IMG/VR virus record: IMGVR_UViG_2657245500_000002
Span: 1 to 9,668 of that record
Direction: 5' to 3' (one strand)
Source of the DNA: a virus
Lineage: Duplodnaviria > Heunggongvirae > Uroviricota > Caudoviricetes
Length of the DNA stretch: 9,668 nt
Shown in pieces: positions 4,690 to 6,941 of this stretch. How positions within the stretch are numbered: the first letter of the stretch is position 1; each line of letters opens with the position of its first letter. Both the position numbers and the translations under genes were made by a program. Under the pieces are notes generated by a model. It did no database searches, was not told the DNA's origin, and was given only the letters and a program-made list of their open reading frames with translations.

Positions 4690-5109
4690 ATGGACAAATA
4701 TGAATTTAGACGACAGCAACTCATCAAAATTCGTGATGAGAAATGCGATGGTAAAGCGGTTAACGTGGCCAGAAAGATCGGGCGCGAGCCTTCTTATGTA
4801 TCAAGAATGTTGTACCCAGAGGGGAAAAAGGGAAAAAAACGGATCGCTGATGATATGGTGGAGATTATCGAAGAGTCCTTTGGGTTACCCCGGGGATGGA
4901 TGGATGGTATCGTTTCATCATCAACGAACACAGCCTCCAGTTATGAAACAAGGGTTCTAACGCCACGACAACGTATTTTTTTAGATCTCTTAGACGAACT
5001 GCCAGAAAGTGAAGCGGATAAATTATTAAAAACTCTTGAAGAGAAAAAACAGTATTACAATATGATCTACGAAGAAATCCGTAAAAAGAAAGCACAAAAC
5101 GCATCATAG
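4690..5109 (+). CDS. Prophage repressor, DicA/RacR-like HTH protein without peptidase domain
   Basis: ORF track. N-terminal HTH (GKAVNVARKIGREPSYVSRML); C-terminal LDLLDELPESEADKLL resembles the DicA ALPESEQD motif as recalled. 139 aa with no S24 peptidase domain. No SD upstream, consistent with leaderless translation. Confidence 0.75.
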   Translation: MDKYEFRRQQLIKIRDEKCDGKAVNVARKIGREPSYVSRMLYPEGKKGKKRIADDMVEIIEESFGLPRGWMDGIVSSSTNTASSYETRVLTPRQRIFLDLLDELPESEADKLLKTLEEKKQYYNMIYEEIRKKKAQNAS

Positions 5110-5152
5110 CTCACCAAACAACTAGTCACCAGTTAAGACACCGCAAAAATTT

Positions 5153-5187
5153 ACCCATAGGTATTTACTTTTTAAATACCTATGGGT
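5153..5187. terminator. Palindromic hairpin (15-bp perfect stem, 5-nt loop) after the repressor gene; probable bidirectional intrinsic terminator
   Basis: acccataggtattta (5153-5167) and taaatacctatgggt (5173-5187) are exact reverse complements. A-tract upstream (aaaaattt), T-rich tract downstream (tccttcttttcat). Lies 44 nt after the repressor stop. Confidence 0.5.
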
Positions 5188-5373
5188 ATCCTTCTTTTCA
5201 TACCAACCCACCCCGCCCCACAGAATGCAGGGCAATACTTCGAGTTACCCGGCAGTGGTCAGGGGTTAAGTAGCCAGCCCGAGGCGTATGAACATGACGG
5301 CGGGAACACTTTGTATAACAGCGCAGCAGGTTTTTGTTCCGCTCCCCCGGCGTTAAGGGGAAATGAGGTCAAC

Positions 5374-5526
5374 ATGGATACTATCGATCTTGGCAACAGC
5401 GAATCTCTGGTATGCGGCGTGTTTCCCAACCAGGACGGCACGTTTACCGCGATGACGTATACCAAAAGTAAAACGTTTAAAACCGAAGCTGGCGCGCATC
5501 GCTGGTTAGCAAGAAACTCCGACTGA
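5374..5526 (+). CDS. YdfA/YdaF-like small protein (50 aa)
   Basis: Internal ATG at 5374-5376 of ORF track 5182..5526, with GAGG 5 nt upstream; the longer listed ORF would start inside the terminator hairpin. Product MDTIDLGNSESLVCGVFPNQDGTFTAMTYTKSKTFKTEAGAHRWLARNSD resembles the ~50-aa proteins encoded next to dicA/racR (recalled). Confidence 0.6.
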   Translation: MDTIDLGNSESLVCGVFPNQDGTFTAMTYTKSKTFKTEAGAHRWLARNSD

Positions 5527-5537
5527 TGAGGTTGACG

Positions 5538-5939
5538 ATGGAATTTAAAGATTTACCAGTACCATTCCAGGAAATGGCATCTAATGTGGTTCGCTCTCAA
5601 CTGGCGACTCTTGACCTGAGTACTGTAGAAAAGGAAACCATCGATACTATATCCGGTAACGTGCGTCGTGCCTTTATAGGTCTGTATGAAGAGAAGCGCC
5701 TATTCGGCGGACAGAATTCGACTGAAAACAAGAATCAAGCAAATGATGAGAAGCTGAAACACATTATCGCCTTACTTTTGGAAGACGCAAAACGTCTACA
5801 GCAACTGGAACCAAATGCAGGCACAGAGGCCCGCATTTGGATTGCCATGAAATCACTCAAATGTGAAAGCAGTGATTATTTCAAAACAACAATTAAAACT
5901 ACTCAACTTTCGGGAGAGCTACTGAAGAAATTGCCATAA
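5538..5939 (+). CDS. Hypothetical protein, 133 aa, no recognisable domain
   Basis: ORF track 5526..5939. ATG at 5538-5540 with GAGG 6 nt upstream preferred (the ATG at 5526 overlaps the upstream stop as TGATG). No TM segment or motif recognised; lower GC than flanks. Confidence 0.6.
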   Translation: MEFKDLPVPFQEMASNVVRSQLATLDLSTVEKETIDTISGNVRRAFIGLYEEKRLFGGQNSTENKNQANDEKLKHIIALLLEDAKRLQQLEPNAGTEARIWIAMKSLKCESSDYFKTTIKTTQLSGELLKKLP

Positions 5940-6093
5940 GAGCATGGTCTTTCTCTTGTTCTGCAAGATGAGCATTAATACCTGCTATGGTTTTTTCAAA
6001 TTTATCTATCTGTTGAATAACAACTTCGCGGTATACGTTTGTATTTGTACCACCAAGCGCAGCCGTTAATGCAGAAAGCATATTTAGTATCAT
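5899..6093 (-). CDS. Small ORF-b (64 aa), translationally coupled to ORF-a
   Basis: In-frame internal ATG (6091-6093) of ORF track 5899..6183, placed 1 nt after the TGA of ORF-a (TGAtATG). Product MILNMLSALTAALGGTNTNVYREVVIQQIDKFEKTIAGINAHLAEQEKDHALMAISSVALPKVE. Its 3' end overlaps the 3' end of the 133-aa gene by 41 nt (convergent). The track's GTG at 6183 directly abuts the SD and is implausible as a start. Confidence 0.35.
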   Translation of the reverse strand: MILNMLSALTAALGGTNTNVYREVVIQQIDKFEKTIAGINAHLAEQEKDHALMAISSVALPKVE

Positions 6094-6094
6094 A

Positions 6095-6178
6095 TCAGTG
6101 CGATATGAAAAGAATCCTGATAGCTTCATCTTGTTTTTCAATAATAGATTGCAGGGCCTCAATTTGCTTTTTATCCAT
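6095..6178 (-). CDS. Small ORF-a (27 aa) with strong SD
   Basis: Below the ORF-track size cut-off. ATG at 6176-6178 preceded by AGGAGG (revcomp of 6184-6189) with a 5-nt spacer. Product MDKKQIEALQSIIEKQDEAIRILFISH looks like an amphipathic helix. TGA at 6095-6097. Confidence 0.3.
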   Translation of the reverse strand: MDKKQIEALQSIIEKQDEAIRILFISH

Positions 6179-6512
6179 TTCACCCTCCTGAGGGTTGGTA
6201 ATTAAGGAGTTCTCCACGGGTCAGGTGGAGTGCGTGCGCCGGACACGGGTGAGCATCCGGCACTGACAGTTTACTGAAAAGGATATATCCCTGAAAAGTC
6301 AGGGCATAACACGAAAGCGCCCGGCGAAGTTAGTCTCTCTGTATAGGTCGTCATTAAATTTTCGTCGACCGCGCGCTTCCGGTTGTGGCACTCCGCGAAA
6401 TGGCGCGGCGGTAAGTATGGCGGGGTTATTCCTTCCCCGTTGAGGACACCGGGTTGTCAGGTTGACCATACGCTTAAGTGACAACCCCGCTGCAACGCCC
6501 TCTGTTATCAAT

Positions 6513-6570
6513 TTTCTGGTGACGTTTGGCGGTATCAGTTTTACTCCGTGACTGCTCTGCCACCCTTTTT
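6513..6570 (+). ncRNA. dicF: DicF small RNA (53 nt plus U-tract)
   Basis: tttctggtgacgtttggcggtatcagttttactccgtgactgctctgccaccc followed by TTTTT matches the DicF sRNA of the Qin dicB operon as recalled. It sits immediately upstream of dicB, as in Qin. Confidence 0.7.
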
Positions 6571-6574
6571 AAAG

Positions 6575-6735
6575 TGAATTTTGTGATGCGGTGAATGCGG
6601 CTATGCGCACGCGGAACAGTTAAAACCGTAAAGTGGTCTTTTACGGGGCGTAACGGGCATCCTTCTGTATTCCGGCGTTAATTGTTAACTGGTTAACGTC
6701 ACCTGGAGGCACCAGGCACCGCATCACAAAATTCA
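6575..6735 (+). repeat. 19-bp perfect long-range inverted repeat bracketing the dicF-dicB spacer
   Basis: 6575-6593 (tgaattttgtgatgcggtg) is the exact reverse complement of 6717-6735, with a 123-nt spacer. The left arm starts 5 nt after the DicF U-tract; the right arm ends 5 nt before the dicB SD (GAGGA 6741-6745). Confidence 0.6.
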
Positions 6736-6752
6736 TTGTTGAGGACGCGATA

Positions 6753-6941
6753 ATGGAAACGTTATTACCAAACGTTAATACGTCTGAAGGTTGTTTTGAT
6801 ATTGGTGTTCTGCTCAGTAACCGGGAGTTTACGGAAGATGCCATTAAGATGAGAAAATATGAACCTTATCTTCTCAATGATAATTCCATACTTTCCAGAA
6901 TTGCCCTTCTTGAACTTGGTATTATCGGAGAACAGCAGTGA
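6753..6941 (+). CDS. dicB: Cell division inhibitor DicB
   Basis: ORF track. ATG at 6753 with GAGGA 7 nt upstream. The 62-aa product METLLPNVNTSEGCFDIGVLLSNREFTEDAIKMRKYEPYLLNDNSILSRIALLELGIIGEQQ matches DicB in length and in the N-terminus as recalled (METLLPNVNTSEGCFEIGV...FTEDAI). Confidence 0.8.
   Translation: METLLPNVNTSEGCFDIGVLLSNREFTEDAIKMRKYEPYLLNDNSILSRIALLELGIIGEQQ

Follow-up and report, generated by a model that had tools for sequence, protein, structure and literature searches.

DicF is among the oldest known bacterial small RNAs. In Escherichia coli K-12 its transcript begins upstream of ydfA, RT-PCR products span ydfA to dicF, and neither Northern blots nor primer extension found a promoter inside the operon (PMC10448788). 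Two stable DicF species of 190 and 53 nt are present, of which the longer requires RNase III for its 5' end and accumulates in stationary phase, and the shorter requires RNase E (PMC10448788); the RNase E dependence of the 53-nt species is also known from other K-12 work (PMC5069750). In the published K-12 accounts compared here, the spacer in front of dicF figures as precursor. The stems cut by RNase III in the rRNA flanks and in phage T7 early mRNA are long imperfect duplexes.

Antitermination offers the other points of comparison. The boxA element, found as rrn-type boxA and in lambda nut, counteracts Rho on untranslated RNA together with Nus factors. Phage HK022 has put sites in both of its early operons, and the read-through at these sites is factor-independent and is abolished by changes in the zinc-binding domain of the RNA polymerase beta-prime subunit. 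The put RNA comprises about 70 nt and forms two stem-loops arranged in a V shape (PMC9378689). For N-less lambdoid phages, the mechanism of early antitermination is acknowledged as unknown (PMC12315714).

The stretch of DNA analysed (the window, 9,668 nt of the Caudoviricetes record IMGVR_UViG_2657245500_000002) has the gene order cI/DicA-like, DUF1391/ydfA-like, dicF, dicB, DUF1482, exonuclease, integrase, and the region under study, positions 6184-6512, has its homologue in the untranslated spacer between ydfC and dicF in the K-12 prophage Qin. From position 6192 on, the identity to the K-12 spacer, to a prophage of E2348/69 and to phage Tritos is approximately 90-100%, and the homology to Qin runs from about 6192 through dicF and dicB. 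The genes upstream differ between the window and these relatives: Qin has ydfB and ydfC, and the window has instead a 133-aa ORF and a minus-strand ORF, while both spacers occupy the same operon position upstream of dicF-dicB. A sequence-only reading of the window had assumed that small ydf ORFs fill the space upstream of dicF in Qin, which is not the case, as Qin has the same ORF-free, unannotated gap of 340 nt. It had also remarked that an N-like gene is absent from the window, and no N came up when the early-left ORFs were searched against Pfam and PHROGs. By synteny, the operon promoter should lie here between the cI/DicA-like and the ydfA-like genes. The coordinates of the features discussed are given in Table 1.

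Table 1. Features of the dicF upstream region and its surroundings (window coordinates).
Feature	Position	Strand	Details
cI/DicA-like gene	4690-5109		
ydfA-like gene	about 5374-5526		
Module A1	6190-6283	+	conserved start GGTTGGTAATTAAGGAG; hairpin 1 at 6212-6230; hairpin 2 at 6239-6260; tail CACTGACAGTTTACTGAAAAGG
Hairpin 3	6289-6304	+	CCCUGA-AAAG-UCAGGG; immediately 5' of the long A2 stem
A2, long imperfect stem	6305-6387	+	5' strand 6305-6327; 3' strand 6362-6387; about 21 pairs
Module B	6382-6496	+	four-way junction and pseudoknot; 115 nt; from covariation
Helix P1 (closing)	6382-6389/6489-6496	+	module B
Helix P2	6393-6397/6404-6408	+	module B
Helix P2b	6409-6412/6448-6451	+	module B
Helix P3	6421-6425/6435-6439	+	module B
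Helix P4	6452-6459/6479-6486	+	module B
Pseudoknot PK1	6415-6420/6466-6471	+	module B; GUAUGG with CCAUAC
Linker	6497-6513	+	module B to DicF; 17 nt; predicted RNase E cut at 3' edge, 6513/6514
DicF sRNA and intrinsic terminator	6514-6565	+	Rfam RF00039; 70.1 bits (gathering score 48)

Our preferred reading, to which we assign a probability of about 0.6, is that 6184-6512 is an internal untranslated spacer of a dicBF-type early-left operon and carries an RNA cassette of conserved structure, processed and refolded as proposed below. A structured non-coding RNA with a role in processing had already been suggested upstream of dicF by the sequence-only reading, and this part of it is supported. 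Its description of the region as GC-rich and ORF-free likewise stands: the GC content is 0.48-0.59 across 6184-6512, compared with 0.32-0.45 in the flanks, and a 70-aa minus-strand ORF, for which Pfam gave no match, is intact in only 4 of the 39 distinct full-length homologous regions. These are 324-328 nt long, so that their length differences are not multiples of 3, and their longest ORFs typically comprise 24-37 aa. A small protein-coding gene, which would require an ORF conserved in frame, was rejected on these grounds. The AAGGAG at 6204-6209, seen as an orphan Shine-Dalgarno sequence, is indeed without a usable start codon, and is part of the conserved module start GGTAATTAAGGAG. The fold energy of the whole + strand is ordinary (z = -1.27), and that of the minus strand (z = -2.78) favours the strand opposite to the one indicated by G-U pairs; energy was therefore set aside as uninformative, and the evidence for structure is covariation.

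The 5' part of the cassette consists of module A1 and hairpin 3. The hairpins CTCCAC-n7-GTGGAG, CCGGA-n12-TCCGG and CCCTGA-AAAG-TCAGGG (hairpins 1 to 3) were found at the positions previously assigned to them; for the repeat CACGGGT(C/G)AG this was true of the second copy at 6244, the first starting at 6215 and not at 6216, and this loop repeat is lost in the L031-type allele. Conservation of the stems across relatives was borne out by compensatory changes in hairpin 3, while hairpins 1 and 2 are kept with little informative variation. Indeed, the position of hairpin 3 retains a hairpin whose sequence is replaced in relatives (GCCUG..CAGGC, CCGG..CCGG, CUGG..CCAG, GAUUAU..AUAAUC), and in 4 of the 6 pairs both sides have changed; a boxB-like hairpin was rejected in view of this replacement, the 6-bp stem and the 4-nt loop. 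According to nhmmer searches, A1 moves independently of A2, and some prophages have a 620-bp insert between them. In sister A1 alleles, hairpin 2 is followed at once not by the tail but by an rrn-type boxA, either a perfect TGCTCTTTAACAA or GTTCTTTAAAAA. What stands there in the window and in K-12 is CACTGACAGTTTACTG, and no match to the boxA consensus (GCUCUUUAACAA or close) with up to 3 mismatches was found in 6184-6512; the best boxA-like matches elsewhere in the window have 3 mismatches. As in the rrn and lambda nut systems, the sister alleles hold boxA where protection of a long untranslated RNA from Rho would fit, a feature missing from the window's own A1. The two largest structures of the region, both within 6305-6497, had been absent from the list of the sequence-only reading.

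The more upstream of the two is the A2 stem. RNAfold predicts this same hairpin for the majority of sequence types, the exceptions being the phage P1-type, L015, L025 and L154-type sequences. For hairpin 3 and A2 jointly (37 sequences), the paired share of cells is 89%, and both sides have changed in 12 of the 27 pairs; none of 500 shuffles reached the observed value, a control that overstates significance here and for module B because the sequences are related, and slid controls gave 28-38%. Compensation in A2 can be followed stepwise from C-G through U-G to U-A (L064/L224, L043/L205), while the window's A2 has a C-C mismatch at 6321/6372 where relatives show A-U. RNase III substrates were taken to be duplexes of about 20 bp or more that are conserved as structure. 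A2 is such a duplex, and on this model it is probably an RNase III substrate. The cut yielding the 5' end of the 190-nt DicF would fall at about 6375-6377, in the 3' strand of A2, a position derived from the 190-nt length as measured from the DicF 3' end, with the RNase III dependence taken from K-12 (PMC10448788). The K-12 species matches 6376-6566 of the window in length, which corresponds to module B plus DicF. Like the stems of the rRNA flanks and of phage T7 early mRNA, A2 is a long imperfect duplex in which the presumed cut of one strand would part upstream mRNA from a downstream stable RNA; unlike in those stems, the 3' strand is predicted to be reused after cleavage in the closing helix of the downstream domain. 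Two other candidate structures were set aside. A processing stalk pairing 6300-6382 with 6597-6706 (RNAduplex, -44 kcal/mol) was dropped because the local A2 stem explains the cut and has covariation, and a local hairpin at 6367-6412 as RNase III site competes with helices P1 and P2 and is absent in relatives without the upstream arm.

Module B is recognised by its covariance model, R1, with 142 bits at 6380-6498. With 93 distinct sequences, paired cells make up 95%, and both sides have changed in 19 of the 36 pairs; for these values it should be borne in mind that the structural alignment was fitted to the model and thus favours the structure. None of 500 shuffles reached the observed value (with the same caution as for A2), and slid controls gave 31-53%. 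The frequent G-U pairs place the RNA on the + strand. Helix P4 is completely rewritten in L146, L148 and L154, and PK1 changes from GUAUGG/CCAUAC to GCAUGG/CCAUGC in phage P1, while the unpaired bases of the P4 loop and of the junctions are invariant. No Rfam 15 family matches module B of the window, phage P1, Ayreon or pPE4, and no riboswitch was found, with cmscan at E <= 10 for window positions 5900-6800 and at E <= 1 for the three related loci. A second pseudoknot between UCCUU (6430-6434) and GAGGA (6442-6446) was rejected since shuffling of the tail gives equally long matches. A tRNA-like reading was likewise discarded: ARAGORN returned nothing, the mascRNA match had E = 9, and no CCA-like 3' end follows helix P1. 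The GGCGGTA found in module B and in DicF is presumably not an RfaH ops element, as its agreement is limited to 7 of 12 positions and does not extend to the pairing base. The four-way junction, the pseudoknot, the proposed switch between A2 and helix P1 and the occurrence without DicF are not described in the published K-12 accounts compared. These observations suggest that the DicF precursor, hitherto treated as a passive spacer, carries a conserved and independently mobile structured RNA domain.

This domain is widespread. Of 5426 complete E. coli genomes, 4315 (80%) carry it, with as many as 8 copies in one genome, and it also occurs in P1-type phage-plasmids; it has never been annotated. 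In phages P1 and P7 it lies in the leader of the ban operon, about 35 nt after the C1-controlled Pban start, with no A2 stem, no DicF and no DicF-like seed; it is followed by a plain, strong terminator (GCCCAUCUUCGGGUGGGC then U6-7), and ban is 2.4 kb downstream. Module B of the Ayreon, Stx2c-type, cdtI and pPE4 phages is found no more than about 350 nt from the end of the repressor gene, and each phage record has one copy of the region. Of 148 distinct downstream sequences, 144 have an intrinsic terminator that begins no more than about 40 nt after module B; the contexts without an adjacent one are L154, L233, L244 and L170. The terminator hairpin itself varies, with at least 12 alleles including DicF, which suggests that the hairpins attached to module B are interchangeable, a set of a dozen or more in which DicF is a single member. 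With three N proteins as tblastn queries, an N homologue was found within 5 kb upstream in none of 163 module-B loci and in 22 of 24 cassettes lacking module B, an anticorrelation which comes from essentially one lineage of N-bearing Stx phages. A covariance-model search of the N-bearing Stx phages examined showed that they have the same cassette with module B missing, and cassettes of this kind retain helix P1 as a hairpin, GGUUGUG-AAUA-ACAAC. As a scan of the genome collection for the DicF pattern gave 8 loci, and only 2 real matches were present among the 80 searched of 120 metagenome matches found, the family seems, as judged from these searches, to be confined to Enterobacteriaceae phages.

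According to the processing reading, transcription would start at a repressor-controlled promoter upstream of the ydfA-like gene and run through a cassette of separately exchangeable parts (A1, hairpin 3, A2 and module B) into the linker and the DicF terminator hairpin. The A2 stem would form first during transcription and hold GUUGUGG, after which RNase III would cut the 3' strand of A2 near 6376. The released GUUGUGGC would then pair with GCUGCAAC (6489-6496) and close helix P1, so that the 5' part of the 190-nt 'long DicF' becomes compact and base-paired, and a later RNase E cut at 6513/6514 would free the 53-nt DicF. The latter position is taken from the Rfam DicF match and the RNase E dependence from K-12 (PMC10448788, PMC5069750). 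We infer the switch from A2 to helix P1 from the GUUGUGG that both have in common, so that cleavage would free this segment to close module B; RNase III cleavage may in this way be the trigger of the refolding that builds the domain. At the least, module B would lend the processed RNA stability and shape. The invariant loops, and the presence in phage P1 without DicF, suggest an additional function proper to the domain. A plain hairpin is evidently enough for the DicF-like cassettes of N-bearing phages, so a domain of 100 nt whose unpaired bases are invariant calls for more than stabilisation, and since module B of phage P1 comes without A2 and without DicF, DicF processing cannot be its general role. 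Module B is a new RNA family even if it is a mere stabiliser, and the mutations that would probe it are clear.

The sequence-only reading had instead placed an early-left promoter in 6184-6512, with its -35 hexamer at 6263-6268 and its -10 hexamer at 6284-6289, so that a dicF-dicB transcript would begin here with a 5' leader; we consider this highly improbable. The two hexamers, cTGACA and TATATC, do exist, and a divergent minus-strand ORF from about 6178 with a strong Shine-Dalgarno sequence makes the region look like a divergent intergenic one. However, the hexamers are 15 nt apart, and their spacer is one base shorter still in the K-12 homologue; a consensus scan for sigma-70 promoters, in which a spacer of 16-18 nt is expected, found none on the + strand of 6184-6512, and the putative -10 sits at the recombination junction between A1 and A2. 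The same module lies directly 3' of the + strand gene ydfC in K-12 and Tritos, so this is not a divergent promoter region: it is internal to the operon, as is its Qin homologue. The K-12 results also speak against a promoter here: RNase III and RNase E are needed for the 5' ends, the transcript can be followed by RT-PCR all the way between ydfA and dicF, and the search for a promoter within the operon was negative (PMC10448788). The antitermination that the same reading had considered now attaches to module B and not to the hairpins it had listed. Module B could be a cis-acting processive antiterminator RNA, with a function like that of put but a different, unrelated fold, the rest of the region being the processing cassette; the nascent domain would bind polymerase and bring about read-through of the adjacent DicF-type terminator and of later stop signals, enabling expression of dicB, the recombination genes and int (in phage P1, of tRNAs, tciABC and ban) without an N protein. 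We regard this as unlikely, albeit with several observations in its favour. In phages P1 and P7, polymerase must pass a strong terminator to reach ban; the domain is promoter-proximal there and in Ayreon-type phages, as putL is, and lies near the end of the repressor gene in the latter and in similar phages; a terminator adjoins it almost always, whatever the terminator sequence; N is missing upstream of it; and the invariant unpaired bases suggest a conserved binding partner. Like put, it is a nascent structured RNA in the early operon of N-less temperate coliphages, upstream of terminators. However, while put consists of two stem-loops, module B is a domain of about 115 nt with a four-way junction and pseudoknot and has no sequence relationship to put, and R1 matches nothing in the HK022 genome at E <= 10. 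Phage records carry a single copy and not one in each early operon, the N anticorrelation has the narrow basis noted above, and the DicF terminator works in K-12, where it sets the 3' ends of both the 53-nt and the 190-nt species. If module B did act on the polymerase, only one other antiterminator RNA fold would be known from phages, delayed-early expression in many N-less temperate coliphages would have an explanation, and the question of early antitermination, in N-less lambdoid phages as in the phage P1 ban operon, would become directly testable.

Two further readings of module B concern its relation to the adjacent terminator. It could be the body of a trans-acting structured ncRNA of about 180-190 nt including the terminator, and its target, to be bound or sequestered, would be a protein of host or phage; RNase III would generate the 5' end in the lambdoid operons and the promoter would fix it in phage P1, and the terminator hairpin would be its 3' end, co-opted in some lineages as the DicF antisense regulator. 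The stability and stationary-phase accumulation of the 190-nt species in K-12 (PMC10448788) are in keeping with this, as are the layout of a structured domain followed by a terminator, which is usual for sRNA genes, the freedom of the terminator loop to vary next to a conserved 5' domain, the phage P1 unit without a DicF-like seed, and the high number of E. coli genomes and copies. We nevertheless find it distinctly improbable, as no protein gene consistently co-occurs (the downstream genes differ among Qin-type prophages, Ayreon-type phages and phage P1) and the adjacent terminator is missing in the four contexts named above; sequence data alone do not separate it from the cis-acting readings. 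Far less credible is a riboswitch-like or attenuator aptamer in which a ligand or protein controls the adjacent terminator. A junction with a pseudoknot, invariant unpaired bases and a closing helix P1, followed by a terminator 10-40 nt further on, is the typical layout of such elements, but no known class matches even at E <= 10, inspection across the terminator alleles found no conserved alternative pairing with the P1 3' strand or the linker, the strand that competes for helix P1 is upstream, in A2, and not in the terminator, and the same four contexts have no terminator to control.

DicF is the 3' end of the RNA unit that includes 6184-6512. The match to RF00039 is confined to DicF itself, with none in 6184-6512, which thus lies upstream of DicF and outside that family. 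Neither the DicF model nor that of STnc100 (RF02076) covers 6184-6512; a stretch similar to STnc100, which reaches 36.5 bits where the gathering score is 47, covers the dicF-dicB spacer at 6577-6730.

The window comes from a Qin/Rac-like lambdoid E. coli prophage, of which it spans the immunity and early-left region; a second, identical copy of the locus lies beside yccA in strain JE86-ST05. From ~6192 onward, the stretch 6184-6512 upstream of dicF is homologous to the unannotated 340-nt ydfC-dicF gap of the K-12 prophage Qin, the region with which the sequence-only reading had proposed comparing it, as well as to the ydfC-dicF gap of E2348/69 and phage Tritos. The genes to the left of the stretch differ between the window and its relatives, which marks 6190 as a mosaic junction. 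The minus-strand ORF at 5899-6183, left of module A1, has a strong Shine-Dalgarno sequence at 6182-6189, and its RefSeq starts differ (shorter, 76 aa in JE86; longer, 92 aa in E2348/69). Such minus-strand genes occupy module junctions within the plus-strand operon, both here and in homologous locus L031 (2882-3370, between A1 and A2). The 3' flank of the cI/DicA-like gene has, at 5152-5188, a perfect palindromic hairpin of 16 bp flanked by T-runs on both strands; this is likely a bidirectional terminator that precedes the presumed early-left promoter.

The sequence features that had been noted in 6184-6512 were all recovered at their coordinates, except for a one-base slip in the first repeat copy. 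The stretch is GC-rich, as claimed (G+C of 0.48-0.59, against 0.32-0.45 in the flanks), and noncoding: among 39 distinct full-length homologues (324-328 nt), the 70-aa minus-strand ORF, which had been dismissed as not credible, is unbroken in only four, a family search gave no match for it, and the longest ORF on either strand is usually 24-37 aa. The observation is real; its interpretation as an early-left promoter is wrong. The proposed hexamers are 15 nt apart and fail a consensus scan, and in K-12, where the transcript begins at dicBp, upstream of ydfA (Ragunathan et al. 2023), a search gave no promoter beyond dicBp (PMC10448788). The stretch is a spacer internal to the operon, and the locus itself is already known as the dicF precursor spacer. 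In the available papers and Rfam, we found no description of its anatomy, of the modular spread of its parts, including into phage P1, or of the switch and fold described below. The earlier suggestion of a structured processing or antitermination RNA pointed in the right direction, while the key structures lie in 6305-6497, outside the hairpins it had listed.

Genes and RNA elements of the locus (window coordinates; P1-P4 and PK1 belong to module B)
Feature	Position	Strand	Remark
cI/DicA-like repressor	4690-5109	+	
DUF1391/ydfA-like gene		+	after repressor, before 133-aa ORF
133-aa ORF	5538-5939	+	
ORF, phrog_18692	5899-6183	-	start immediately left of 6184-6512
A1	6190-6283	+	hairpins 1 and 2
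Hairpin 3	6289-6304	+	hairpin preserved in relatives with very different sequences
A2	6305-6387	+	long imperfect stem, folded in most sequence types examined
P1	6382-6389 / 6489-6496	+	7/8 pairs covarying
P2	6393-6397 / 6404-6408	+	invariant, neutral evidence
P2b	6409-6412 / 6448-6451	+	1 pair covarying
PK1 (pseudoknot)	6415-6420 with P4 loop 6466-6471	+	1 pair covarying
P3	6421-6425 / 6435-6439	+	4/5 pairs covarying
P4	6452-6459 / 6479-6486	+	6/8 pairs covarying
DicF	6514-6565	+	Rfam match, 70.1 bits
dicB	6753-6941	+	
DUF1482 gene		+	3' of dicB
Exonuclease gene		+	3' of DUF1482 gene; integrase next in full locus

Homologues in phage, plasmid and viral-contig collections, from which the modules were delimited, show the spacer to be modular, with parts that also occur separately. 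In some alleles a 620-bp insert with a minus-strand gene splits A1 from the rest. These alleles, and some others, carry either the perfect rrn boxA TGCTCTTTAACAA or GTTCTTTAAAAA directly 3' of hairpin 2 (L031 2844-2856 and 13 other loci; variants in L047, L063, L073, L181 and L182); the window and K-12 are without boxA and have CACTGACAGTTTACTG in its place. The element in the sister alleles precedes the long untranslated dicF region and resembles an anti-Rho site for Nus factors. The loop repeat that had been noted in A1 is absent from them.

At the base of A2, CAYAAC pairs with GUUGUG, followed by a small internal loop and ~13 more pairs around GAAAGCGCACGG / CCGUGCGCUUCC. When hairpin 3 and A2 are counted jointly (37 sequences), 89% of cells are paired and 12 of the 27 pairs have changed on both sides; none of 500 shuffles reaches the observed value, and slid controls have 28-38% of cells paired. 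Compensation in A2 is stepwise (C-G to U-G to U-A), and Ayreon-type phages retain its architecture with an unrelated sequence. The window itself has a C-C mismatch at 6321/6372: both bases differ from the A-U pair found in K-12, Tritos and E2348/69. K-12 produces a stable 190-nt DicF species whose 5' end is RNase III-dependent, and RNase E is required for the 53-nt DicF (PMC10448788). Measured from the DicF 3' end, a 190-nt RNA would begin at ~6376, at GCGC|UUCC within the A2 3' strand, and A2 is therefore read as a predicted RNase III substrate, with the cut placed by length arithmetic.

For module B (6382-6496), a four-way junction with a pseudoknot was derived as a model from 93 distinct copies. 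The sequences are related and were aligned by fitting them to the model; in them, 19 of 36 pairs have changed on both sides and 95% of cells are paired. None of 500 shuffles reaches the observed value, the relatedness of the sequences applying here too, and slid controls have 31-53% of cells paired. Helix P4 is wholly rewritten in loci L146, L148 and L154. The frequent G-U pairs indicate an RNA on the plus strand.

The segment GUUGUGG(C) at 6382-6389 is shared: it ends the A2 3' strand and also supplies helix P1 with its 5' strand. The two helices, each backed by covariation, are mutually exclusive. A2, the earlier of the two to be transcribed, would fold first; an RNase III cut at ~6376 would strip its 5' strand, after which the freed GUUGUGGC could close P1. 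In the N-bearing Stx phages (PhiR5_2, phiSTEC1589-Stx1c, 75/02 Stx, and 38 viral contigs), A1, hairpin 3, A2 and a terminator of DicF-like type are all retained, and GGUUGUG-AAUA-ACAAC, a bare P1 hairpin, replaces module B, the interior of which is missing. This suggests P1 as the general 5'-terminal hairpin of the processed RNA, and module B as an optional element, inserted in the P1 loop, that has its own function.

A 100-nt core of module B is found in the ban-operon leader of phages P1 and P7, ~35 nt past the C1-controlled promoter, and is named 'dicF-like region' in the phage P1 record. The core also lies shortly after cI in Ayreon, Stx2c-type, cdtI and 2H10 lambdoid phages, and occurs in phage pPE4. 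Of 5426 complete E. coli genomes, 4315 carry module B, in as many as eight copies each, and it is never annotated there; nothing convincing was found beyond Enterobacteriaceae phages, and the window, phage P1, Ayreon and pPE4 copies gave no match in Rfam 15. The dicF-dicB spacer (6577-6730) has a sub-threshold match to STnc100 (36.5 bits; gathering score 47), and a stretch resembling it precedes tciA in phage P1; loci L013 (3842-3961) and L015 (3258-3442) belong to the same observation. The ban operon of phage P1 therefore seems to contain the entire lambdoid cassette in split form, interrupted by inserted tRNA genes. On the minus strand of Ayreon (L014), a C4 antisense RNA (80.7 bits) and isrK (58.9 bits) adjoin at 40-127 and 152-228, within a region annotated 'immunity region'.

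As to what module B does, we give a probability of roughly one in three to a stabilising or processing role only, in which it would be a compact, nuclease-resistant 5' body of the 190-nt RNA and would space the RNase E cut. This agrees with the K-12 data, but leaves the invariant unpaired bases of module B unaccounted for, and explains neither the phage P1 copy, which is without DicF, nor why N-bearing phages can do without the module. That it is an antiterminator RNA is possible, if doubtful: it is promoter-proximal in phage P1, Ayreon-type phages and pPE4, a terminator comes after it, and none of the 163 loci with module B has a detectable N gene upstream, compared with 22 of the 24 cassettes without it, although this N association comes essentially from one lineage. 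The mechanism of early antitermination in N-less lambdoid phages has been noted by others as unknown (PMC12315714). Against the antiterminator reading, module B bears no relationship to put, the cis-acting antiterminator RNA of HK022, and there is a single copy per phage. A role outside those named here has a somewhat smaller chance, a trans-acting structured RNA is unlikely, and a riboswitch-like attenuator highly improbable.

Downstream of module B, an intrinsic terminator begins ~10-40 nt past helix P1 in 144 of 148 distinct sequences. Its hairpin exists in at least 12 versions, among them canonical DicF, several DicF-like ones with a common GGCGG/CCGCC base and differing U/C-rich loops, and the plain, UUCG-capped one of phage P1; given this variety, DicF is one allele among those of a 3' module that varies, attached to a conserved 5' domain. 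Conversely, a DicF copy from Salmonella is preceded by neither A nor B. The hairpins with the GGCGG/CCGCC base (e.g. in L014, L015, L025, L038, L049, L065, L073, L112, L241 and L242) are possibly a family of sRNA alleles with different targets. A divergent phage group (L154 5123-5300, L244, L233, L148 5192-5480) has module B with no terminator after it and, 3' of it, a second conserved structured stretch of ~170 nt, which has no Rfam match, contains a motif GCGGCGTAAGGTGGTC resembling module B, and lies inside a ~1.3-kb ORF-free region. In the window, DicF has A at 6562 in place of the G of K-12 and most copies (GCCACCC vs GCCGCCC), which makes a C-A mismatch at the base of the terminator stem; of the loci compared, only the identical one in JE86 shares this A. 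A hairpin at ~6622-6646, CCGTAAAGTGGTCTTTTACGG, is created by a 13-nt insertion that K-12, Tritos and E2348/69 lack, and it scores as a terminator when read on the minus strand.
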